DNA from: a virus
Length of the DNA: 64,000 nt
IMG/VR virus record: IMGVR_UViG_3300021185_002518
Location: 5,749 to 69,748 of that record
Strand: one strand, 5' to 3'
Positions 36,991 through 46,963 of this stretch are shown one piece after another. Every line of letters begins with the position of its first letter. Positions within the stretch are counted from its first letter, which is position 1. The translations under genes were made by a program, and so were the position numbers. The notes under the pieces are model-generated. The model did not search any database. It was not told the DNA's origin and was given only the letters and a program-made list of their open reading frames with translations.

Positions 36991-39900
36991 ATGGATAAAA
37001 CTTACTATTTAAAAGGAGAGGCATATAGTTTTAAAACAGAAGCGGAGCTGAGCGCGTGGTTAACCAATAACCCTGATGCTAGTGAAACTAACAACGAGGT
37101 AAGCGTTGATAGTGTCGAAAAGACTGATACTGTAGACGTTATAGAAGAAGTTGTTTCACCTAGCTTAAGTTCAAGTGATTTTTACTATAAAGCCTACAAC
37201 ATGGAAAAACCTGTAAAAGTTGTAGAAGAACCTACAGGACCTTTTAATTTTAACAAAAAAACTGACTATAGTAAATCAACCTACGATTTTAGTCCAGACG
37301 CAAAAATAACAGAAGAAAAGCGTATAACTCAACCGGGCTACATGCGAGACAAAGAAGTTTTACAAGACTGGTTAAACAACGAGTATTTTGCTAAAGGCAT
37401 GGCTAAAGATATTACAAGAGGTAATATTGTTGCTTACCAAGCTGGCGAGGCTGATTTAGGTGAACTAAAAAAACATTTTAGAAACGACCTTGGGCAGCTT
37501 AACGTAAGTAGAAACGCATATCCTAATTTAACAGACTCTGATTTAGATAAAATATTTAGCGAAATAGCTGACCAACAGATTAGACTAAGAAAGAAAAACG
37601 AGAGCGTAAAAGATGAGTATGCTAAAATAAATTATATTCTTTCTAAAAAAAATAGCGAACAGTCTGATGCAGAAGCTATATCAAACGCTGTAGATAGATT
37701 AGACAACGCTACTATAAACTCTTACCCAGATGTACTTGAAGCTGAGTTTGCACAAATCATGAAAAGATACAGGGCAGGTGATATGTCTGTTAAAGAACAG
37801 CTAGACCCAAACGTTGTTGGATCTGTAGCTGATCGTTTATTTAATAAAGATGAAACTAAACTTGTAGATGGTATACTTACTTTAACTGGCGGGCGTATAC
37901 CAAAAGACAAAGAGTATAAAATGTTTCATGACCCAATAACAGGAAGAAACATTAAGGTTGGTAAAGATAGAGAGGCGCCACAAGGTGGAACTCTTGTTAA
38001 TATAACTGATTCTTATGAATTATATTTACAAGGTTTTAAAAATACATCTCAAGCTGATTTAAAAAAATACAATCAAAGATTGCTTTTAGAAGAAGCTGGT
38101 TTTGAAATGGAAAATCAACAAAAAGGTGATTATTATGTAGGTGATAAAAATATGTCTAGTTTGTTAAAAGAGCAAGGCTACAAGGTTGATTCAAAAGGTG
38201 TATTTAAAGATGTACCGTTAGGCGTTTTAACAAAATTATCGCACATTCCAGGTACGTCTGATTTTTGGTCACCTGACTCATTTATGTCTAAAGGAGAAAT
38301 AATACCTCAAAGCTTTGAAAATACACCTTATACAAATGAACAAGAGTTTGTAGACTTTTTAGTAGAAAGAAGAAAACAAAACAACGATATAACTTCTAAA
38401 AAAGCTGCCTTGTGGCAAACTTGGTATCTAAATAGAGACCCAGAAACTATAAGTAAAAATAGACTTGGTCAAATTGGTGGTGCTTTCATGCAGGCAATGT
38501 TTGGCGAAGACATAACTATAGAACAATCATCAAAAGACTTTGCTATTCCTATACCTCTTACCAATCAAAAGAAACTTGATATAATAGCTAGTCAAATTAT
38601 ACCAGATTCAGGTGTTGATGTTGCCAAACAACAAGAAGCTTATCTTGAAGATGATTTTTCTGATGAATTTTTTAGAGGATTAGGTGGTCTTAACGCTATG
38701 CTTTTAACATTATCACCTGTAAGCAAATTTCAAAAAGTTTTAGGTATAAATAAGCTTTTAACAAGTTTTAATATTCCAAAATATATTAAAAATGGTAGAA
38801 CAATTACACAAGGCCGAGCAATAAAACTGGCTGCTAAAAAAGGTAAAAATTTAGACGATTGGGCATTAAAAAATGGTTGGAAAACAAAACCAGCCACTAG
38901 CTTAGATAAAGGAAAAGGTATAGTTCTTGGTGGTATATGGGAAGATATTAAAATGCGTGAAATTTTAGGTGCTGTAAACGAAAATATGCAGTTTGAAAGA
39001 GGTGTTGGTTGGGGTTTTTTTGTAGCTCCTAAATTTTTACCAGTTGGATTTGGTAAGTTTGGTAAAGGTAAACCTTTTGGCTATAGTTTTAAGCGTAATC
39101 AAATGAATACCTTTATGCAATCAACGTTTGTTAACGCACCTGCGTTTGCTTTAGCTGTTGAAGGTGGTGATGCGTTAGGTGCTGTTGTAAAAGACTTACA
39201 AGGCAAACAAGAAGTTAGCACTTGGGTAGATAAACACTGGAGTGATTATGATGTTAATTTAAGACGTATAGGGTTAAACCTTATAACTGGTAAAGGATTA
39301 GGTTTAATGCACCTTAATCATCTTGACGTTAAAACAACTGCTGGTATAGGTAAATTTCAAAGAAGATCTACTGAGCTTATTGGCGAGCAGATAGATGTTA
39401 TCCAAAAGAAAGCAGATGCAGCCGAATTTTATAACGACAAGGGTAAAAAAATAAAAATTAAAGACCCACAACAAAGATATGAAACTTGGGTAGAACAAAA
39501 CACTAATAGCAAAGAGGTTTTAAAACTTGAAAAACACTTAGAAGATTTTAACATGTCTTCGCAAGCTCTAAACACTATCAATGAGACTGCGGAGTGGGTG
39601 GATCCTGTTAAAGCTAAAGAAAATTATGACAAACATTACGAGCCGTTAAAGAAAATGTTTGAGTCCAAAGGTAAAGAACTTAAGGTAATTCTTACCGACA
39701 AGCCTATTTATCAAGAAGTTATACAAGAAGATGGTAGCATAGTAAAACAAGAGGTGAATGCTTTATACACTAGAATGGGTAACGGTAAGGTTGGAACAAT
39801 ACAGTTAAACACTAGAAAAGCAAAAGGTAAAGATATTATAAATCACGAAGGTTTACATGCTTATTTAGACATGATGTTCGATGGTAATCCTAGCTTTAAG

Positions 39901-42900
39901 CTTAAGTTTGAAACATCTTTTAAAGCTGCTATGAAAAGTATTAAAACGCCAAACAGTAACTTGTACGAAGATATACTTAAGACTAAAGATATACAAAAAG
40001 AACTTAAGCTGGAAGAAATGATGGCTTATTCTGCAGAGTACTTAAGTAAAGCTGAATATTACACAAACATGGTTAACAGTGGTGCTTTTATTAAAGTTAA
40101 AAAGTTTTGGAATAACTTTGCTAAAAGTACTTTTAATAAAAATGCTGATTTAACTACAAAACAAGATATAATAGATATTTTAGGTAGTTATGGTAAGACT
40201 GGTGATTTTAAAAAGCTAAAAGCGTTAAATGAAATAATAGAGTTTGATCCTACTGGTAAAGCTGGAGAAGCACAGCTTGCTTCAAAAGAAAACATAAATA
40301 AAACTATTGAGAAAATAAAAACTCAAAAAATAGAAGTACAACAGGAAATAAAAGACTTAAGAACAGCTCAAGGTAATACAAGTAAATTTCAAAAACAAAT
40401 AGATAAAAAATACGAGCTTTTTGGTGAGCTAAACGCTAATCAGAAAAAACTAGAAAACAAAGCTGAATTAAAAGAAGTTCAAGAAACTGGTTGGGAAAAA
40501 CAAATTGATAAAGACTACACTGGTAAATACAAAACTAAAGAAGAGTTTCAAGTTAGTGCTGAAAACAGTAGGACACAAAAAAATATAATGGAAAGCTCTG
40601 GTCTAAAAAACATGATCAGACAAGGACAAAGATCTTTAGACATAACAGACAAAGTAGAAGGTGAGTTTATGGAAAATGTTTTATTTGAAATAATAAAAAG
40701 ATTTAATAAAAATTACGATCCAGGTAAAATAAACAAAGAATTTGGAAGAGCACTTACTCCGTTTGAATACTTAACTACAGGACAGCAGTCACAATCGTCT
40801 ATTATATATAGAGCTATTGGTGATGTTGCTATAAAAATGGGTAAACAAGTAAAAACTGTTGCCGCTGACGCTTATGAGGGTGGTTACGGTGCGTTTGAAA
40901 ATATGGTTTCTGAAAGCGGTTATTCCAAGCTTGATAGCCATACAGGTTCTCCAATTGAAGCTAAAGGTATTGTAGTTGCTACTGCACTAAATATAAACCC
41001 TATAACTGTAAAAAGAGCTGCAGGTGACGCTAAAAACTTAAACTTTGAAACAGATGCTGGTGCAAAAGAAAAAGCTAGCTATAAAAACATAGGTAAAAAT
41101 TACAAAGAAACAATAGAAAAAGATATTGTTGTAGATTATTATGGCGTTAGCGAAGTTGTGTATAACAAGATGAAGAAAAACGCTTCAGAGCAATTGAACA
41201 AAGCTGATTTTGAAGCTATTCAAGCAAAGATAAAACCTACAATAGAAACACATATAAAACTAATACCTAAGTGGGGTCAAGTTTCTGTTGACCCAATAAC
41301 TGGCGAAAGTATATCTATGAAAACTGTTTCTGGTGTTAAATCTGAAACTAAAGCAACAGGTATTACAACTGTACTACTTAAAAACAAATTGTTATTTAAT
41401 GAAATACAACAAACAGGTACTAAAGGTTCTAAATACGAGTGGACAGCAGAACTAAAAGAATATCACAAATCAATAGACCCTGTTTTCAAAAAACAATTTG
41501 AGCAAAAAGTTTTAGATTCTTGGGGTATGGGTGAAACCGTGTTTAACAGAGGGAAACTTAGTGGTATATACAAAGCTATAATGACACAGACAGGTAAAGC
41601 TGTTTATTTACAAAGTGTAAAACAAGCAATACCAAACACGCCTTCTTTAAAAATAAAACATATTGTAGCTAACATGATAAACCAGGTCTCTGCTGGTCAA
41701 TCTCCGAGTTTAGCTTCAACAAATATTAATGAATTAATAAAATTAGTACAAAAAACAAAAGTAACTTTAGAAGATATTTCTAATCTTTCAAAAGACATAC
41801 CCGCTGTCAAAGTGTTAGAGGAAATTATAATGGAAAGAGATTCTTTAACAAAAGATACTAAAATTGTTGAATTAAATGAAAAGTTACAAGCAGAACTAGA
41901 AAGTAAAACAACAGCTGAACTAGACGTTGCTTATTTAGAGTCAGTTAACAACTCTAAAAAAGTAGCTATAAAATATAAGCTAAATAAAAAGTTTGCTGAT
42001 CCAAATTACATTGCTAAAAATTCAGCTGAAATTGTTGGTACTAAAATAGTTAATGGTAAAAAAGTAGATGTTACTCTAGGTGAGTGGAGAAAAGATATTG
42101 ACAGACAAGTTATTGAAGAGTTAGGTATTAATCTTAATGACTTCGGATCTTTAACAACAAGAAGCAATCAAAAAAACCACCATGCTTTAGAATCTTTGTT
42201 AGTTGAATTAGGTTTTGGTAGTAAAAGCAGAAAACAAGTACTACCTAATGGCGAGGTTGTTTATTTAAACAAAGAAGGTAAAACTAGCGCTGAAGCCATT
42301 GAATCTTTTTTAGGTAAAAAGTTTACAGCTGTAGAAGGTAAATCTGCTGGTAAGTATAAAAATGTATATAGACCAGACTGGAGCAATTTAAAGAAAAAAC
42401 TAGACGCTCTTGAGAAAAAAATGCTTAGTGAAAATAAAACTGTAGAGCAAATCAAAGATGCTAAAATAGAGCTCTATAGACAAGAAGCTTCTTATAGCGG
42501 TAAATCAAAAGACTTTGAAGCTACAGAACAAGCTAATAGAGAGTTTTTTGAAGATTACTTTACTGCTATGGCCAAAGTAGCTTATAAAAACAAAAACAAT
42601 AACGGTGTTGAATATTTTCTACAATCTAGAGCTATGCAAACTAACCATGCTAAAGGTATAAGCAAGTCTTTAGGATATAAAATGGCATCATTAAACGCTA
42701 TAGGTAGTAAGCCTGGTGAAATACAAACAACTAGTGCAAAAGGAGAAATAAAAACTAAAGACAACAAAGGTGTGAGTAATCACTGGGAGCATGGTTTACA
42801 ACTTTTAAATCAAACAAATAGATTTGTTGATCTTATGCGTAAACATAAAAGTGTTACACCTGCGTTTAAAAAAGGACTTAAAGAGATTTTAGATATATCA

Positions 42901-45876
42901 GAGCAACATTTAATTCCTAAAAATGGCCAGCTATTTAACGACGCTAAAGGTCCTACAACATTTACAAAGTCTTATATTGAAGCTATGAAAAAAGGCTCTG
43001 ATAACCCACTTTTAAATGTTTTTGCAAACAAGTACGCAAGGCTAGATAACAACTTTGTAGTTAGTGGACCTAACAAAGGTAAAAGTCTTTTAGAAGTGCA
43101 AGTAGAAAGTATTGATCTTAACCTTGCTAAAAAAATAGTAACAAAAATTCCTAAAAATAAATGGAGTATTCTTGAGTACATGCTAGACTCAAAAGCTAAA
43201 AACTCTAAGGCGGTTGAAAAACAAGGTGTTGATTTAATAAAGCAGAGTTTAGGTGAAAAAATTGCCAAACAAGTAGCTTCAAAAGATATTAATCAAACAA
43301 TAAAAAATATTGATAAAGCTTTAGAAAACGGTAGAAAAAGAAATAAAAAGTCACAAGGTATGAGTACTTTTGATTTTGATGAAACAGTTGGTGTTAGTGA
43401 AAACTACGTTTTTGCTACTAAAGATGGTAAAAAGAAAAAAATAGCATCTGCAGAGTGGCCTTTTGTTGGTGAAAAGCTAGTTAATGAAGGTTGGAAAATG
43501 GATTTTACAGATTTTAACAGAGTTACAAATGGTAAGCCAGGACCTTTAATGCAAAAAATGAAAAATCAAATAAAAAAGTTTGGGCCTAAAAACGTATTTA
43601 TATTAACCGCTAGAGCTAAAGAAAGTCAAAAAGCAATACACGACTGGTTGAAAAGTGAAGGTGTTGAAATACCTGTTGAAAATATAACTGGCTTAGGTAA
43701 TAGTACTGGCGAAGCTAAAGCACTTTGGATGTTAGAAAAGTTTGCTGAAGGATATAACGATATGTATTTTGTTGACGATGCCTTACCAAATGTTAAAGCT
43801 GTTAAAGATGTATTAAGTCAGCTAGATATTAAATCTAAAGTTCAACAAGCATTAGCTAGTAAAAACTTAAACGAAACTACAAACAAAATATTACAACACT
43901 CTTTAGGTGTGGATGCTAATAAAAACTTTTCAAAAGCAGAGGCAAAAGTTAGAGGTAAAGATATTAAGCGAAGAAGAATATTTATGCGAGATAGCGCTGC
44001 TGATTTAGAATTACTTATAGAACCTCTGTACGGTAAAGGCAAGCAAGGTAACGAAAATAAAAAATGGTTTAAAGAGGAGTTTATAATGCCATTTGAAAGA
44101 GGCACAAGGGATTATAACACAGCTAGACAGTCATCTAAAAACGACTACATGGCTCTTCGTAAACAAAACAAAGATGTTGTTAAAATAATTTCAGACCAAG
44201 TAGAAGGCACTAGCTTTACAAATGACATGGCGATGAGAGTTTATTTATGGAACAAAGCTGGTTATAAAATTCCAGACTTAGCCGCGAAAACAGAAACAAA
44301 GCTTGTTGAGCATATATTAAAATACCCAAGGTTACAAGCTTATGCAGAGCAATTTGGAAAAATTACAAAACAGGAAAAAGGTTTAAAAGAACCAAGCGAA
44401 AACTGGTGGGGAGAAACAATGGCCGGTGAAATTACTAACTTAGACAGAGGTGTTAGTAGAAAACAATACTTACAAGAATTTATAGATATTAAAAATGAAA
44501 TATTTTCTGAAGTTAACTTAAATAAAATGGAATCTCAGCTTGGTACTAGATGGAGAGAAAACATAGAAGATATGTTTGATCGTATGGAAACTGGTAGAAC
44601 TAGATCTTTAAAACTAGATAGAGGTAGTAGTGCTATGATGAACTATTTAAATGGTGGTATTGGTACTATCATGAACTTTAACACTAGGTCTGCTGCTCTA
44701 CAAACTATATCTACTCTTAACTTTATTAACATGAAAGAAAACAACCCGTTTTCTGCTGCTAAAGCAATGGCTAATGTACCTCAGTTTTCTAAAGATTTTA
44801 TGACTATCATGAACTCAGATATGCTGAAACAAAGAAGAGATGGTTTAGCTATAAATGTCACTGAAGCTGAAATTGCTTCTGCGGCAGCATCTTCACCGAA
44901 CATGATACAAAGTGTAATATCTAAAGTGTTAAAAGTTGGTTACACACCCACAAAACTTGCAGATAGCTTTGCAATATCATTTGGTGGTGCTACTTACTAC
45001 AGAAATAGAATTAAAATGTATGAAAAGCAAGGTGTAGAAACTAAAGAAGCTGAAAAAAAGGCTTTTTTAGATTTTCAAGTTTTAGCAGAAAGAACGCAGC
45101 AGTCATCGAGAGCGGATCTATTGTCTAAACAACAAACATCGTTAATAGGTAGAATAGTATTGCCTTTTGCTAACACTCCTATGCAGATGAACAGAGCTGG
45201 TATGAAAGATATACTTGATATAGCTAAGGGCAGAACAAAAGGTTTGAGAAACACGTCTGAAGCTATGGGTAGAATAACTTATTACATGGGAGCTCAGGTT
45301 TCTTTGTTTGCTGGTTTACAATCAGCACTATTTGGTATGTTGTTAAATGATGAAGATGTTACTGACGAAAAAATAGCTAGCACAAAAGCTTACACATTGC
45401 AATCAACTGGTGATTCTATGTTAAGGGGTTTTGGTGTGCAAGGAGCTCTTATATCGTCATTTAAAAATGCTACGCTTGAATTCTTTAAACAAAACAACAA
45501 ATCTGCATTTGCAGCTGATTACAGCGAGGTAGCTGAAGATTTTCTAAATATATCGCCTCCAATTGGTTCTAAATTTGGTCTGTTAGATTCTGCTGGCGAT
45601 AATTTAAAATGGAGCAGAGATACTCCGTTTAAGTTTAAACTAGGTAATCCAAAACTAGAAGCTGGGTTAAAAACTATACAAGCACTTACTAACGCGCCTG
45701 TTTACTCGCCGTACCAAAACATTACTAACATACAACACGCGTTAAGTGATAAATACGAAACATGGCAAAGAATGCTTATGTTTGGTGGTTGGACGCCTTA
45801 TAACGTTGGTATAGAAAAAGAAAAGAAAAAAAGCAAGAAAACAAAAAAATACGAAGGAGTACCTACTATAAAATAA
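36991..45876 (+). CDS. giant polyvalent internal virion protein (zincin + HAD phosphatase-like domains)
   Basis: INHEGLH...EEMMA zincin at ~39844; FDFDET/ILTAR/FVDD HAD motifs at 43369-43780; helical C-terminal region. Confidence 0.75.
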   Translation: MDKTYYLKGEAYSFKTEAELSAWLTNNPDASETNNEVSVDSVEKTDTVDVIEEVVSPSLSSSDFYYKAYNMEKPVKVVEEPTGPFNFNKKTDYSKSTYDFSPDAKITEEKRITQPGYMRDKEVLQDWLNNEYFAKGMAKDITRGNIVAYQAGEADLGELKKHFRNDLGQLNVSRNAYPNLTDSDLDKIFSEIADQQIRLRKKNESVKDEYAKINYILSKKNSEQSDAEAISNAVDRLDNATINSYPDVLEAEFAQIMKRYRAGDMSVKEQLDPNVVGSVADRLFNKDETKLVDGILTLTGGRIPKDKEYKMFHDPITGRNIKVGKDREAPQGGTLVNITDSYELYLQGFKNTSQADLKKYNQRLLLEEAGFEMENQQKGDYYVGDKNMSSLLKEQGYKVDSKGVFKDVPLGVLTKLSHIPGTSDFWSPDSFMSKGEIIPQSFENTPYTNEQEFVDFLVERRKQNNDITSKKAALWQTWYLNRDPETISKNRLGQIGGAFMQAMFGEDITIEQSSKDFAIPIPLTNQKKLDIIASQIIPDSGVDVAKQQEAYLEDDFSDEFFRGLGGLNAMLLTLSPVSKFQKVLGINKLLTSFNIPKYIKNGRTITQGRAIKLAAKKGKNLDDWALKNGWKTKPATSLDKGKGIVLGGIWEDIKMREILGAVNENMQFERGVGWGFFVAPKFLPVGFGKFGKGKPFGYSFKRNQMNTFMQSTFVNAPAFALAVEGGDALGAVVKDLQGKQEVSTWVDKHWSDYDVNLRRIGLNLITGKGLGLMHLNHLDVKTTAGIGKFQRRSTELIGEQIDVIQKKADAAEFYNDKGKKIKIKDPQQRYETWVEQNTNSKEVLKLEKHLEDFNMSSQALNTINETAEWVDPVKAKENYDKHYEPLKKMFESKGKELKVILTDKPIYQEVIQEDGSIVKQEVNALYTRMGNGKVGTIQLNTRKAKGKDIINHEGLHAYLDMMFDGNPSFKLKFETSFKAAMKSIKTPNSNLYEDILKTKDIQKELKLEEMMAYSAEYLSKAEYYTNMVNSGAFIKVKKFWNNFAKSTFNKNADLTTKQDIIDILGSYGKTGDFKKLKALNEIIEFDPTGKAGEAQLASKENINKTIEKIKTQKIEVQQEIKDLRTAQGNTSKFQKQIDKKYELFGELNANQKKLENKAELKEVQETGWEKQIDKDYTGKYKTKEEFQVSAENSRTQKNIMESSGLKNMIRQGQRSLDITDKVEGEFMENVLFEIIKRFNKNYDPGKINKEFGRALTPFEYLTTGQQSQSSIIYRAIGDVAIKMGKQVKTVAADAYEGGYGAFENMVSESGYSKLDSHTGSPIEAKGIVVATALNINPITVKRAAGDAKNLNFETDAGAKEKASYKNIGKNYKETIEKDIVVDYYGVSEVVYNKMKKNASEQLNKADFEAIQAKIKPTIETHIKLIPKWGQVSVDPITGESISMKTVSGVKSETKATGITTVLLKNKLLFNEIQQTGTKGSKYEWTAELKEYHKSIDPVFKKQFEQKVLDSWGMGETVFNRGKLSGIYKAIMTQTGKAVYLQSVKQAIPNTPSLKIKHIVANMINQVSAGQSPSLASTNINELIKLVQKTKVTLEDISNLSKDIPAVKVLEEIIMERDSLTKDTKIVELNEKLQAELESKTTAELDVAYLESVNNSKKVAIKYKLNKKFADPNYIAKNSAEIVGTKIVNGKKVDVTLGEWRKDIDRQVIEELGINLNDFGSLTTRSNQKNHHALESLLVELGFGSKSRKQVLPNGEVVYLNKEGKTSAEAIESFLGKKFTAVEGKSAGKYKNVYRPDWSNLKKKLDALEKKMLSENKTVEQIKDAKIELYRQEASYSGKSKDFEATEQANREFFEDYFTAMAKVAYKNKNNNGVEYFLQSRAMQTNHAKGISKSLGYKMASLNAIGSKPGEIQTTSAKGEIKTKDNKGVSNHWEHGLQLLNQTNRFVDLMRKHKSVTPAFKKGLKEILDISEQHLIPKNGQLFNDAKGPTTFTKSYIEAMKKGSDNPLLNVFANKYARLDNNFVVSGPNKGKSLLEVQVESIDLNLAKKIVTKIPKNKWSILEYMLDSKAKNSKAVEKQGVDLIKQSLGEKIAKQVASKDINQTIKNIDKALENGRKRNKKSQGMSTFDFDETVGVSENYVFATKDGKKKKIASAEWPFVGEKLVNEGWKMDFTDFNRVTNGKPGPLMQKMKNQIKKFGPKNVFILTARAKESQKAIHDWLKSEGVEIPVENITGLGNSTGEAKALWMLEKFAEGYNDMYFVDDALPNVKAVKDVLSQLDIKSKVQQALASKNLNETTNKILQHSLGVDANKNFSKAEAKVRGKDIKRRRIFMRDSAADLELLIEPLYGKGKQGNENKKWFKEEFIMPFERGTRDYNTARQSSKNDYMALRKQNKDVVKIISDQVEGTSFTNDMAMRVYLWNKAGYKIPDLAAKTETKLVEHILKYPRLQAYAEQFGKITKQEKGLKEPSENWWGETMAGEITNLDRGVSRKQYLQEFIDIKNEIFSEVNLNKMESQLGTRWRENIEDMFDRMETGRTRSLKLDRGSSAMMNYLNGGIGTIMNFNTRSAALQTISTLNFINMKENNPFSAAKAMANVPQFSKDFMTIMNSDMLKQRRDGLAINVTEAEIASAAASSPNMIQSVISKVLKVGYTPTKLADSFAISFGGATYYRNRIKMYEKQGVETKEAEKKAFLDFQVLAERTQQSSRADLLSKQQTSLIGRIVLPFANTPMQMNRAGMKDILDIAKGRTKGLRNTSEAMGRITYYMGAQVSLFAGLQSALFGMLLNDEDVTDEKIASTKAYTLQSTGDSMLRGFGVQGALISSFKNATLEFFKQNNKSAFAADYSEVAEDFLNISPPIGSKFGLLDSAGDNLKWSRDTPFKFKLGNPKLEAGLKTIQALTNAPVYSPYQNITNIQHALSDKYETWQRMLMFGGWTPYNVGIEKEKKKSKKTKKYEGVPTIK

Positions 45877-45883
45877 ATAAATA

Positions 45884-46963
45884 ATGAAAAAAATAATTAT
45901 AATACTATGTATAGCATTATCTGCTTGCGCCGTGCCAAAAGATTGTTGCTCGCAAAACTTTAAAAAGTATTTTAAGTTTGCGACGTTTTACGCTGCGGCT
46001 AATGGTGGTAACTCTATATCAGACGTAGACGTGTTTTCTGTAACTAACGGATTAGAAACTGTAACCGTAGAAACTCCTTATGATTATAACCTAGCTTTGG
46101 GTATACGTAAGATCGCAAGGTTTGGTTATGAAAACAGAGCTAGTACATTTTACGATGGAACAGAAGAGTCATGGTCAGATGGTGCTAGTATAGGTAAAGT
46201 ACGTGGGTTAGAATTTTTATTTGAAGTAGATTATAAAAGGCAACAAGGTGATGAATACTTAGACCAACATCACTTTATTAGATATGTAAGTGACGATGGT
46301 TGCGGTAAAGGTTTTTGCTTAAATCATTTTATACTAAAAGGTGAATACTTAGAAGACGGTTTCGCTGATATTAAATACTTTGAAACTTCACAAAGATATA
46401 GATATAAAGTTAATGACAAATTATCATTCAATGCTGGGCTTGCTCAAAGGCTATCCGAACCTTACGGATATGATCCATTAGAAGAGTGGGTGCTCAGCAA
46501 TGGTAATATACATTACACTTACCTAGCACTACAAGAAGGCTACAATGTCGATGTTGCTGCTAGTGAGTATTTTTCTCCAGATGGAGAACTCGTTGCTACA
46601 AGCAAAGAGGTTTGGGAAGAGGTTGTGATACCTACAGTGCTGTCAGATTATACACAGAAAAAGCGTAACGAGCTAAATCAAATCATACAACACTCTGTTG
46701 TTTTAGGTTTTGATTATTATCGCTATACTAAATCATTTTGGTCGCACGCTTGGGCAAGTTTAATGCCATACCATTATGACGACGGTAACGATTACTCTTA
46801 TCATAAATACGAGGGTAAACAATGGCTTGATTATAGTGGTGGTTTAATACTTGGTTATAAAGTAAATAAACACCTAGGTACGTTTGTTGAGGGTAAATAT
46901 AATAAATACTGGAATAGAAAGTGGTATGACTTTAAATTTGGAGTAAATTACGTAATCTTCTAA
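45884..46963 (+). CDS. outer-membrane beta-barrel-like protein with lipobox-like signal
   Basis: MKKIIIILCIALSAC; alternating aromatic strands; C-terminal FKFGVNYVIF. Confidence 0.6.
   Translation: MKKIIIILCIALSACAVPKDCCSQNFKKYFKFATFYAAANGGNSISDVDVFSVTNGLETVTVETPYDYNLALGIRKIARFGYENRASTFYDGTEESWSDGASIGKVRGLEFLFEVDYKRQQGDEYLDQHHFIRYVSDDGCGKGFCLNHFILKGEYLEDGFADIKYFETSQRYRYKVNDKLSFNAGLAQRLSEPYGYDPLEEWVLSNGNIHYTYLALQEGYNVDVAASEYFSPDGELVATSKEVWEEVVIPTVLSDYTQKKRNELNQIIQHSVVLGFDYYRYTKSFWSHAWASLMPYHYDDGNDYSYHKYEGKQWLDYSGGLILGYKVNKHLGTFVEGKYNKYWNRKWYDFKFGVNYVIF

Follow-up and report, generated by a model that had tools for sequence, protein, structure and literature searches.

A repeated junction motif in a giant polyvalent-type phage protein, with a candidate protease encoded in cis

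A short linear motif at the unit borders of a giant phage protein

A protein of 2961 aa (P0001), encoded by a marine podophage that is kin to phages of Flavobacteriia, carries four copies of the pattern (L/V)AS(K/T)x(1-2)(I/L)N, starting at residues 1096, 1574, 2095 and 2288. This short linear motif, under selection as a peptide, lies in the linkers that join the units of the protein, where each copy caps the helix that opens the following unit; its core reads hydrophobic-(A/G)-(S/T)-(K/R/T)-(D/N/E)-hydrophobic, often followed by N. Cleavage at the motifs is plausible as a hypothesis; the family supplies a candidate site together with a candidate protease in cis, a zincin-like domain ahead of the first copy. 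The DNA analysed (the window) is a stretch of 64,000 nt, positions 5,749 to 69,748 of the IMG/VR virus record IMGVR_UViG_3300021185_002518, from a phage genome of 69.7 kb. Features of the gene are collected in Table 1.

Table 1. Coordinates of the P0001 gene and of the domains, linkers and motif copies of its product
Feature	Residues (aa)	Position in window (nt)	Strand	Remarks
P0001 gene, giant polyvalent-type virion protein (putative)		36991..45876	+	single ORF, 2961 aa
N-terminal region	1-599	36991..38787	+	no Pfam/PHROG match; about 1/4 to 1/2 of homologs align
Conserved helical region and zincin-like domain	600-1080	38788..40230	+	AF2 model mdc73ab46c397
HEGLH (HExxH)	952-956	39844..39858	+	144 residues ahead of site 1
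Linker 1	1081-1098	40231..40299	+	predicted coil, pLDDT ~50; ends in copy 1
Motif copy 1 (site 1), QLASKENIN	1096-1103 (LASKENIN)	from 40273 (L1096 at 40276)	+	ends linker 1
Module A	1096-1573	40276..41709	+	opens with long antiparallel helical hairpin, aa 1094-1166
Motif copy 2 (site 2), SLASTNINE from nt 41707	1574-1581 (LASTNINE)	41710..41733	+	short coil, pLDDT 57-62
Module B	1574-2094	41710..43272	+	probably two units: B1 to ~1810, B2 from ~1811
Degenerate fifth copy, MLSENKTVEQIK	1811-1822	42421..42456	+	tentative
Motif copy 3 (site 3), QVASKDINQ from nt 43270	2095-2102 (VASKDINQ)	43273..43296	+	break between helices 2089-2094 and 2097-2114, pLDDT ~72
HAD-fold phosphatase domain	2120-2283	43348..43839	+	DxDxT 2128-2132, T2206, K2243/K2250, DD 2262-2263
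Motif copy 4 (site 4), ALASKNLNE from nt 43849	2288-2295 (LASKNLNE)	43852..43875	+	pLDDT <50 at aa 2283-2288, then helix 2293-2305
C-terminal all-helical conserved domain	2288-2961	43852..45873	+	hydrophobic helix aa 2761-2785

Upstream of the gene lie TerL, portal and MCP-like genes and the gene of a 2755-aa structural protein, and tail fibre genes follow it. This position, together with the label 'structural protein' on positional analogues, suggests that P0001 is packaged in the virion; it is probably a virion-packaged 'polyvalent' protein that is ejected into the host. Homologs fell into 882 clusters, and the family, which consists of uncultured phages, occupied more than 583 IMG/VR loci (a lower bound). 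Searches with the whole protein returned no Pfam family at E up to 1 and likewise none in PHROGs, only chance-level rows by phmmer against PDB sequences, and no tblastn match among 50,697 phage records.

Along the chain, the domain order was N-terminal region, gluzincin-like HExxH...E domain, cassettes A and B, HAD phosphatase and helical C-terminal domain. The C-terminal domain aligned in 113-116 of 119 homologs, with many residues invariant. The C-terminal half of the protein matched, in a BFVD Foldseek search, pieces of phage proteins labelled polyvalent or LPD (TM ~0.3), and the feature-based leads from Atlas were LPD38/LPD39 for the C-terminal domain (0.93-0.95) and LPD5/22/23 (0.86-0.87). 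Neither module A nor module B had a recognisable fold or family in Pfam, PHROGs, Foldseek, VIA-align and relative searches, the relatives of module A being 23 representatives among 1.84 billion, all inside the P0001 family. Module B probably comprises two units: BLAST HSPs started at aa 1830-1840 and fragments at aa 1812-1814, and the degenerate fifth copy coincided with this sub-border. The helix of the fifth copy may resemble the helix after site 1 (NKTIEKIKTQKIE versus NKTVEQIKDAKIE).

Occurrence of the motif in P0001 and in the window

A first-pass annotation of this DNA had picked out the four strings at 40273, 41707, 43270 and 43849, with the first behind the zincin domain, the third and fourth bracketing a HAD domain, and modules of about 480, 520 and 190 aa in between. 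All four strings were recovered in the single ORF, the copies lay as described relative to the HEGLH and to the HAD fold, and their spacings came to 478, 521 and 193 aa. The idea of three effector modules held less well: the HAD domain alone has a basis as an effector, modules A and B lack a recognisable family, and the ~520-aa module is probably two units.

The pattern [LV]AS[KT]x{1,2}[IL]N was observed four times in P0001 against 0.0065 expected, and none of 2000 composition-preserving shuffles reached four; the shorter [LV]AS[KT] also gave 4 occurrences, against 0.32 expected. When the six frames of the window were searched with a looser pattern, a single further match appeared, in a stop-interrupted frame. 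The motif was absent from the other listed ORFs of the window, where the nearest strings were LASTLTG, from the 2755-aa structural protein next to it, and VASTAKG, from a neighbour of 478 aa. The copies remained alike for some 13 residues into a helix of amphipathic character, whose hydrophobic positions are i, i+4 and i+7. Serine was encoded by TCA or AGT and the leading Leu/Val by CTT, TTA or GTA across the copies, and this use of different codons indicates selection on the peptide and not on the DNA. A DNA-level recombination signal was accordingly rejected as origin of the motif, the codons of the copies being different and their longest shared run about a dozen bases. Domain duplication was also rejected, since the modules have no other similarity to one another.

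Conservation in homologs and exchange of modules

In collinear homologs (43-85% identity) the motif stood at the same four places, LATKEIN, VATTDIN and LAKTDIN being among the tolerated forms. The core [LVMIF][AG]S[KR][DN][LIVMF] was observed 119 times in 120 proteins, where 9.0 were expected, and in 192 proteins it occupied 29 distinct flank contexts, compared with 1-8 for six permuted controls; its instances numbered 120, as against 1-15 for permuted controls. P0001 is rich in K, N and I and its coding DNA is AT-rich, a composition from which a chance repeat might arise, but the shuffles, the conservation in homologs and the permuted controls make an artefact of this kind hardly credible.

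The strict form of the motif was confined to a subclade. Counts by zone covered 150 of 189 distinct proteins; to be counted, a protein had to reach 2000 aa, contain a single HExxH and show a recognisable DxDxT behind it. Proteins with HExxxH or HDxxH therefore stand outside these counts. The strict motif was present in 27 and 33 of the 150 at the two HAD flanks and in 7 after the zincin, the zincin itself being universal. A broad [FYWAG]S[KR] occurred after the zincin in 64 of the 150, a modest enrichment over random windows (40.7, maximum 61), and Ser-Lys around the HAD domain persisted in the wider family (88 and 121 of the 150).

The relatives' homology breaks at sites 1-3 are module swaps, judged from sequence alignments. 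Among 14,088 breakpoints of an all-against-all comparison, 10.1% fell at most 15 aa from a motif, against 2.3% for random positions. Ends of BLAST HSPs clustered at site 1 (13 at aa 1067-1070 and 10 at aa 1093-1097) and at site 2 (10 at aa 1576-1591), and 24 HSP starts lay at aa 2088-2097, at site 3. At site 2 the upstream NQxxAGKSxxLAS was conserved and divergence set in directly after 'AS'. Site 4, in contrast, was never a swap point among homologs, so the suggestion that homologs exchange modules at the motifs stands for three of the four sites. Its family-wide consensus is QQALASK[DN]LN, with indels directly ahead of the SK; as the site is never a swap point, this conservation could be purely structural. 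Proteins that appeared to be stand-alone HAD plus C-terminal forms starting at the motif (P0213, P0218, P0192 and P0164) were discarded as evidence in either direction, the short forms being unproven because the same sequence is internal to longer IMG/VR ORFs of 2664-4318 aa.

A short element that floats in linkers and is selected as a peptide could also be a non-proteolytic linear motif, that is, a site of Ser or Lys modification or of binding to a packaging or ejection factor. The persistence of Ser-Lys around the HAD domain in the wider family would suit such a role. The analysis turned up no enzyme or partner as a candidate, however, and close homologs replace Ser-Lys by TT, TK, KT or QT, as would not be expected if modification strictly required the Ser or the Lys; we regard this explanation as improbable. 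A lysine-methylation motif was also considered and dropped, the passages of a Cellulophaga phage proteomics paper (PMC13288928) containing nothing relevant to it.

Predicted structure at the motif sites

In the AF2 predictions all four motif copies lay at helix starts. Sites 1, 2 and 4 were in coil or in dips of pLDDT, and site 3 was a break between two helices, which agrees with the earlier expectation that the motifs mark domain borders and avoid folded cores. The structural alignment of the HAD domain started at aa 2120 and ended at aa 2276-2283, and sites 3 and 4 are therefore outside the HAD fold.

These predictions leave room for more than one reading. The motif may be an uncleaved junction or adapter: behind a flexible linker, each cassette would open with an amphipathic helix whose N-cap and initial turns form the motif, with P0001 staying whole, as the N4 vRNAP is described. 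Its role might then be that of a hinge or structural joint, that of a helix docking to one shared partner (for example the capsid interior, the portal or the C-terminal domain), or that of a standard joint that keeps exchanged cassettes in frame and foldable. The exact placement of every copy at a predicted helix start is in line with this, as is the run of likeness into the helix, which exceeds the usual length of a protease site. Two helices with a break between them (pLDDT ~72), and no disordered loop, make up site 3, site 4 is conserved despite never being a swap point, and there is the precedent of N4, whose giant protein with an HExxH is described as intact. A generic helix cap is, on the other hand, unable to explain why a single six-residue word is enriched 13-fold in this family, in 29 unrelated contexts, or why the phage's other helical proteins lack the motif. 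The distance from the motif to the downstream DKALELG helix or HAD motif I also varies, from about 26 to 41 residues, and site 2 fits a linker signal better than a first helix because its conserved half belongs to the upstream module. Taken together, we consider an uncleaved junction doubtful, although it keeps a substantial share of the probability.

The zincin-like domain and the proposal of self-processing

The reading we find most likely is that the zincin-like peptidase of P0001 itself recognises the motif and cuts there; we put it forward tentatively, at somewhat less than an even chance. In the AF2 prediction, strands at aa 896-940 were followed by the HEGLH helix (aa 948-963) and a Glu helix (aa 1007-1019). 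Across an alignment of 35 sequences, H952, E953, H956, E1009 and E1016 were each kept in at least 90%, and E1009, on the second of these helices, also in at least 90% of 68 sequences; it is the presumable third zinc ligand. The HExxH and the Glu 52 residues downstream were kept in nearly all relatives. Of the homologs, 108 reached 2600 aa; among these, 100 had one HExxH, two had two, five had HExxxH and one (P0039) had HDMLH. Exactly one HExxH was present in 67 of 68 IMG/VR ORFs of more than 2000 aa, a set from which 8 of 80 loci had been left out for want of an exact GYND[MI]YF anchor.

Assignment as a zincin draws on these motifs and on the predicted topology and is tentative. With a profile of the domain, the best peptidase matches among PDB sequences were snapalysin-type zinc proteases at non-significant E-values (0.39-0.41), and single Pfam scans of 68 members gave scattered weak matches to DUF6782 (2), Zincin_1 (1), M78 (1) and M1 (1). 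Foldseek against PDB and VIA-align, run with the whole model of aa 600-1799, listed no zincin, the lists being filled by other parts of the model: generic helical matches in Foldseek, and the hairpin after site 1 in VIA-align.

Under self-processing, the peptidase would first cut in cis at site 1, the remaining sites would be cut subsequently, and cassettes, phosphatase and C-terminal domain would come apart as free units, either inside the capsid or after ejection. We infer proteolysis, the responsible protease, the scissile bond and the timing alike. The broader proposal is that this widespread family of giant proteins in the virions of marine phages works as a delivery platform that cuts itself, in which the zincin recognises a six-residue hydrophobic-A-S-K-D/N-hydrophobic joint between swappable effector cassettes, including a tRNA/RNA-end-healing phosphatase, and releases them as separate proteins; it is possible, and we hold it with a good deal of reserve.

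Several observations weigh against self-processing: the strict motif is limited to a subclade while the zincin is universal, the broad pattern is just modestly enriched after the zincin, the positional analogues in cultured relatives show no motif, and the giant protein of N4 is described as intact. The homolog P0039, in which HDMLH replaces HExxH and four motif copies are nevertheless kept, also counts against it; this protein fits an uncleaved junction, and it would also fit a protease acting in trans, whether of the host or another phage protein, with the HExxH directed at cell-envelope or host defence proteins, for example. Position and conservation of the motif speak for cleavage in trans just as they do for self-processing. 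No such protease was recognised by Pfam or PHROGs among the neighbouring virion genes, and no other virion protein of the phage has the motif, whereas a general maturation protease should have further substrates; a trans-acting protease thus appears quite improbable.

The HAD phosphatase domain

The HAD domain showed the strings FDFDET (aa 2127-2132), LTAR (aa 2205-2208) and FVDD (aa 2260-2263), and D2128, D2130, T2132, T2206, K2243/K2250, D2262 and D2263 were invariant in sets of 63 and 43 aligned sequences. VIA-align matched it to the T4 Pnkp phosphatase (5uj0_B; Z 9.7, rmsd 2.5, 120 aligned), to Pnkp1 (4xrp_A; Z 9.7) and to T4 PNK (1ltq_A; Z 9.0), with about 40 further HAD entries at Z 6.5-8.1. 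The whole model of aa 1800-2961 gave weak HAD phosphatase rows (probability 0.7-0.98) in Foldseek against PDB. Some homologs carried a P-loop kinase of the Zeta_toxin/AAA_33 type, and RadC-labelled variants also occurred. The HAD domain may act on 3'-phosphate ends of nucleic acids, to judge from the order in which the structures ranked and from the homologs with a kinase. For homologs of the P0010 type, a kinase position ahead of the HAD domain and behind the helix of site 3 was rejected, the kinase actually being inserted within the HAD domain. The presence of a Pnkp-like phosphatase in the particle would suggest an immediate-early counter to RNA-cleaving defences of the host.

Comparison with known systems

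Prohead proteases process internal head proteins at a short consensus (T4 gp21 after Glu, phiKZ-like enzymes at S/A/G-X-E), and viral polyproteins have cis-cleaving proteases. Such systems share with the present proposal the short consensus at borders and a protease that first cuts its own C-terminal border. The motif of P0001 differs from those of prohead proteases, and the protease proposed for it, a zincin-like domain, is part of the substrate chain instead of a separate serine prohead protease.

The HAD domain has the fold and the four catalytic motifs in common with T4 Pnkp (5uj0, 1ltq) and with Pnkp1 of the Pnkp1/Rnl/Hen1 RNA repair complex (4xrp). In P0001, by contrast, the domain sits in a giant (putative) virion protein, identity is just 12-13%, and there is no kinase; where homologs of P0001 do have one, it is inserted between HAD motifs I and II and not N-terminal to the HAD domain.

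Elemovirus gp21 (YP_010108907.1, 3694 aa) and UOF82488.1 of MW202828 (3859 aa) are encoded at the corresponding place in their genomes, behind the capsid genes and a large structural protein, and have one or two HExxH each; the terminases of these phages are 45-62% identical to that of the present phage. P0001 had no BLASTP similarity to either protein below E 0.98, and neither contains a copy of the motif. A de novo search of both proteins in a reduced alphabet found no repeated six-residue words above shuffles, a search that also missed the motif of P0001, because site 1 has an extra residue.

For coliphage N4 gp50, both the description and the solved structure are of an intact chain of about 3500 residues, with no processing mentioned in the passages on it (PMC13434306). 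Like P0001, it is a giant podophage protein, ejected in the case of N4, in which an HExxH domain (C1) precedes a large domain made mostly of alpha-helices, which in N4 is without known structural homologue. Gp50 has an RNA polymerase, none being recognised in P0001, and the likeness drawn here is one of features.

Phages and plasmids commonly encode giant polyvalent proteins, and since 2017 their zincin-like HExxH domains have been predicted to cut them up, with autoproteolytic release of domains (Iyer, Burroughs, Anand, de Souza and Aravind 2017, PMC5512222). As described there, such proteins resemble P0001 in being giant multi-domain chains encoded among virion genes, in having an HExxH helix followed by a Glu helix, and in combining unrelated enzymatic and uncharacterised domains in one chain with mosaic exchange; P0001 differs in having no significant Pfam LPD or peptidase model. 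Where that paper deals with linkers, cleavage and cleavage sites, its passages name neither a cleavage motif nor a junction consensus, and 'phosphatase' and 'polynucleotide kinase' are absent from its main text. More generally, the literature passages on HExxH domains of polyvalent proteins contained no defined cleavage site and no demonstration of cutting. If P0001 stays uncut, the motif would be a standard joint of interchangeable cassettes, with a bearing on mosaic evolution. If the family is a self-cutting platform, phages could freely swap injected cassettes that would still be freed as separate proteins, and this would be the first defined protease-site pair for polyvalent proteins. In addition to what has been described for these proteins, the P0001 family offers a candidate for a junction or cleavage consensus.

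A recurrent motif in P0001 and its relatives

All four motif strings quoted in the first-pass annotation were found where it had placed them in P0001, the giant virion-type protein encoded in the window (see table of features). The pattern [LV]AS[KT]x(1-2)[IL]N occurs four times in this protein against 0.0065 expected, a number reached by 0 of 2000 shuffles, and a looser pattern run over the six frames of the window turned up no additional copy within real ORFs. Successive sites are spaced by 478, 521 and 193 amino acids, and the modules that they separate show no other mutual similarity. As a junction element the motif is genuine and conserved, belongs to a widespread family of giant virion proteins of phages, and had not been described before; in the accessible full-text literature, supplements aside, we found neither a defined motif marking cleavage sites or junctions in polyvalent proteins nor a description of the P0001 family.

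Features of P0001, its neighbours and its homologs (nucleotide positions in the window unless otherwise marked; pLDDT from AlphaFold2)
Feature	Nucleotides	Strand	P0001 residues	Description
P0001 gene	36991..45876	+		single ORF, 2961 aa
HEGLH			952-956	zincin-like domain
HDMLH of homolog cluster P0039	39844-39858 (aligned)			replaces HExxH
Motif copy 1 (site 1), QLASKENIN	40273	+	1096 (first hydrophobic residue)	end of 18-residue coil, then long helical hairpin; pLDDT about 50
Motif copy 2 (site 2), SLASTNINE	41707	+	1574 (first hydrophobic residue)	short coil; pLDDT 57-62
Motif copy 3 (site 3), QVASKDINQ	43270	+	2095 (first hydrophobic residue)	break between two helices; pLDDT about 72
Motif copy 4 (site 4), ALASKNLNE	43849	+	2288 (first hydrophobic residue)	after low-confidence stretch aa 2283-2288; pLDDT under 50
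Degenerate motif-like copy, MLSENKTVEQIK	42421-42456		1811-1822	fifth copy
KSKDF	42505-42519		1838-1842	conserved
NHWEH	42778-42792		1930-1934	module B2
HAD motifs FDFDET, LTAR, FVDD				between sites 3 and 4
Kinase insert of P0010, P0017 and P0018	43369-43614 (corresponding)			P-loop, GGAGSGKS
Hydrophobic helix, RITYYMGAQVSLFAGLQSALFGMLL	45271-45345		2761-2785	within conserved C-terminal domain
359-aa protein	45884-46963			right after P0001 gene
286-aa ORF with KLDGVR	G000:C1:3892-4752	-		outside window

The window represents most of one 69,748-bp phage contig, on which genes for a large terminase, a portal, a capsid-type structural protein and a 2755-aa structural protein lie upstream of the P0001 gene and tail fibre genes downstream. 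The terminase and the 2755-aa protein match 87 phage records (Flavobacterium elemoviruses, Cellulophaga, Tenacibaculum and Maribacter phages, and one uncultured podovirus). Cultured relatives carry a giant gene at the equivalent position (3694 aa in NC_055852 and 3859 aa in MW202828), in the products of which neither sequence similarity to P0001 nor a copy of the motif was detected. The true relatives of P0001 are uncultured, comprising 882 protein clusters at E <=0.001 (120 of them listed) and 583 confirmed out of 599 IMG/VR stretches, 80 of which were retained. The 359-aa protein following P0001 has a signal-peptide-like start, and counterparts of 345-376 aa ending in ...NY[TV]IF are found at the same position downstream of the giant gene in relatives (loci L084-L091). 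At one locus (L009:2077-12178) the giant gene consists of two overlapping ORFs of 1566 and 1814 aa, which may reflect a frameshift or an assembly error; the split point is not a motif copy.

Position of the motif at module borders

Each of the four copies was located at a predicted helix start in the AlphaFold2 models. When P0001 was compared with 119 relatives by BLAST (212 HSPs), alignments ended at aa 1067-1070 (13), 1093-1097 (10) and 1576-1591 (10), and 24 alignments started at aa 2088-2097. Of the 14,088 homology breakpoints obtained by comparing all proteins with one another, 10.1% lay at most 15 residues from a motif copy, versus 2.3% at random positions. Helix starts, alignment ends and starts, and the breakpoint excess together support the proposed placement of the motif at domain borders. 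Nearly all of 34 aligned relatives share NQxxAGKSxxLAS on the upstream side of site 2, while the chains directly downstream are unalignable; site 3 presents the opposite picture, with a variable gap of about 26-41 residues from the motif to the downstream DKALELG helix and HAD motif I. Site 4 was never seen as a swap point in the 119 homolog alignments, and its conservation alone is therefore not proof of a junction function.

Relatives of module A (aa 1096-1573) numbered 23 representatives, only within the P0001 family. Module B, of about 520 aa (aa 1574-2094), is probably composed of two units, B1 to about residue 1810 and B2 thereafter. The NHWEH sequence of B2 lies in a consensus, HxEHxxQLLN, that is conserved across relatives (E1933 in at least 90%), and may act in metal binding or catalysis. 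The same module holds the degenerate fifth copy and the KSKDF sequence, at which several homolog alignments start.

Conservation of the motif peptide

The core [LVMIF][AG]S[KR][DN][LIVMF] occurred 119 times in 120 proteins against 9.0 expected. A set of 192 proteins had 120 occurrences, spread over 29 distinct flank contexts, and six permuted versions gave 1-15 occurrences in 1-8 contexts there. Codons differ among the four copies of the P0001 gene, serine being encoded by TCA or AGT. In close homologs SK can be replaced by TT, TK, KT or QT, and the motif still begins with hydrophobic-Ala and ends with D/N/E-hydrophobic-Asn. Only a subclade has the strict form of the motif. Counts in the junction zones of 150 full-length proteins are given in the table below; a histogram of motif positions likewise had two peaks flanking the HAD domain.

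Motif occurrence in junction zones of 150 full-length proteins (random windows scored with the broad pattern, [FYWAG]S[KR])
Zone	Strict core	Broad pattern	Random mean (max)
After zincin	7/150	64/150	40.7 (61)
Just before HAD	27/150	88/150	25.7 (38)
Just after HAD	33/150	121/150	22.3 (36)

Zincin-like domain and possible self-processing

When aa 600-1799 were aligned to 34 relatives, H952, E953, H956, E1009 and E1016 were kept in at least 90% of sequences; a second alignment, covering the 200 residues that surround HExxH at 67 IMG/VR loci, likewise kept E1009 in at least 90%. In the AlphaFold2 model of aa 600-1799 (pLDDT 66.0, pTM 0.38), the predicted HEGLH helix spans aa 948-963, preceded by strands at 896-940 and followed by a Glu-bearing helix at 1007-1019, which matches the layout given for zincin-like domains by Iyer et al. 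(PMC5512222). Pfam and PHROGs assigned no family to P0001, the top peptidase found when PDB sequences were searched with a zincin-domain profile had an E of only 0.39, Pfam scans of single family members gave weak and scattered matches, and whole-model structure searches were uninformative on zincin membership. Exactly one HExxH was present in 67 of 68 IMG/VR ORFs longer than 2000 aa. Among the 108 stored proteins with 2600 aa or more, 100 likewise had exactly one, and six had none, of which five have HExxxH. The latter form, HEVLGH, is one residue longer and was seen in five homolog clusters and one IMG/VR locus (L054).

The motif fits a short linear signal in the inter-module linkers of the P0001 family. 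The first-pass annotation had taken the copies to be self-cleavage sites that free effector modules of ~480, ~520 and ~190 aa after injection; the domain-border part of this reading holds, on structure and breakpoints, while proteolysis at the motif is a good hypothesis that can be tested, rather than a result. Cleavage by P0001's own zincin is a tentative reading, favoured by the near-universal HExxH...E domain in relatives, by site 1 lying closely downstream of that domain and by the confinement of the motif to P0001 among the phage's proteins, and in line with the autoprocessing predicted for polyvalent proteins in PMC5512222. However, the likeness among copies continues into an amphipathic helix for about 13 residues, and site 3 is predicted to be a structured break, not a loop; an uncleaved junction or adapter helix is only somewhat less likely than self-processing. 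Also against self-processing, P0039 with its HDMLH still has four motif copies. Of the giant ejected proteins that bear an HExxH domain, N4 gp50 has been studied best, and PMC13434306 describes its chain as intact. What probability remains falls to a protease acting in trans or to another kind of linear motif.

C-terminal half and comparison with known systems

The HAD and C-terminal domains (last ~870 residues) align in 113-116 of 119 homologs, whereas the middle of P0001 does so in only 23-50, and the catalytic HAD residues are invariant in the alignments. In the AlphaFold2 model of aa 1800-2961 (pLDDT 68.5, pTM 0.58), the HAD part best matched the T4 Pnkp 3'-phosphatase (5uj0_B; Z 9.7, rmsd 2.5, 120 residues), together with Pnkp1 (4xrp_A; Z 9.7) and T4 PNK (1ltq_A; Z 9.0), and many other HAD enzymes aligned at Z 6.5-8.1. 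The structurally aligned range was aa 2120 to 2276-2283, which leaves about 25 residues between site 3 and the start of the fold, and 5-12 between its end and site 4. The HAD identity of aa 2120-2283 is well supported.

Structural matches to the C-terminal half (E 1e-12 to 1e-5, TM about 0.3) also include pieces of phage proteins that carry the labels polyvalent, LPD or MuF, one of these being a Tenacibaculum phage Gundel_1 structural protein. The hydrophobic helix of this half may insert into membranes as part of an ejection protein. Many relatives (P0126, P0174, P0164, P0213, P0196, L084 and L085) have a Cys-rich C-terminal tail, C..GxxC....C.YHD, and the precomputed annotations of P0010 and P0015 include PF19067/DUF5763; P0001 lacks the tail and has a Lys-rich C-terminus instead.

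The 286-aa ORF outside the window carries KLDGVR, presumably a nucleotidyl-transferase (ligase-type) motif, and together with the Pnkp-like phosphatase of the virion protein could point to nucleic-acid end repair. In the homologs P0010, P0017 and P0018 a P-loop kinase, with precomputed Pfam labels Zeta_toxin/AAA_33, interrupts the HAD domain after motif I (FWDFDDT) and before motif II. The order of kinase and phosphatase domains thus differs between T4 Pnkp and the P0010-type homologs.
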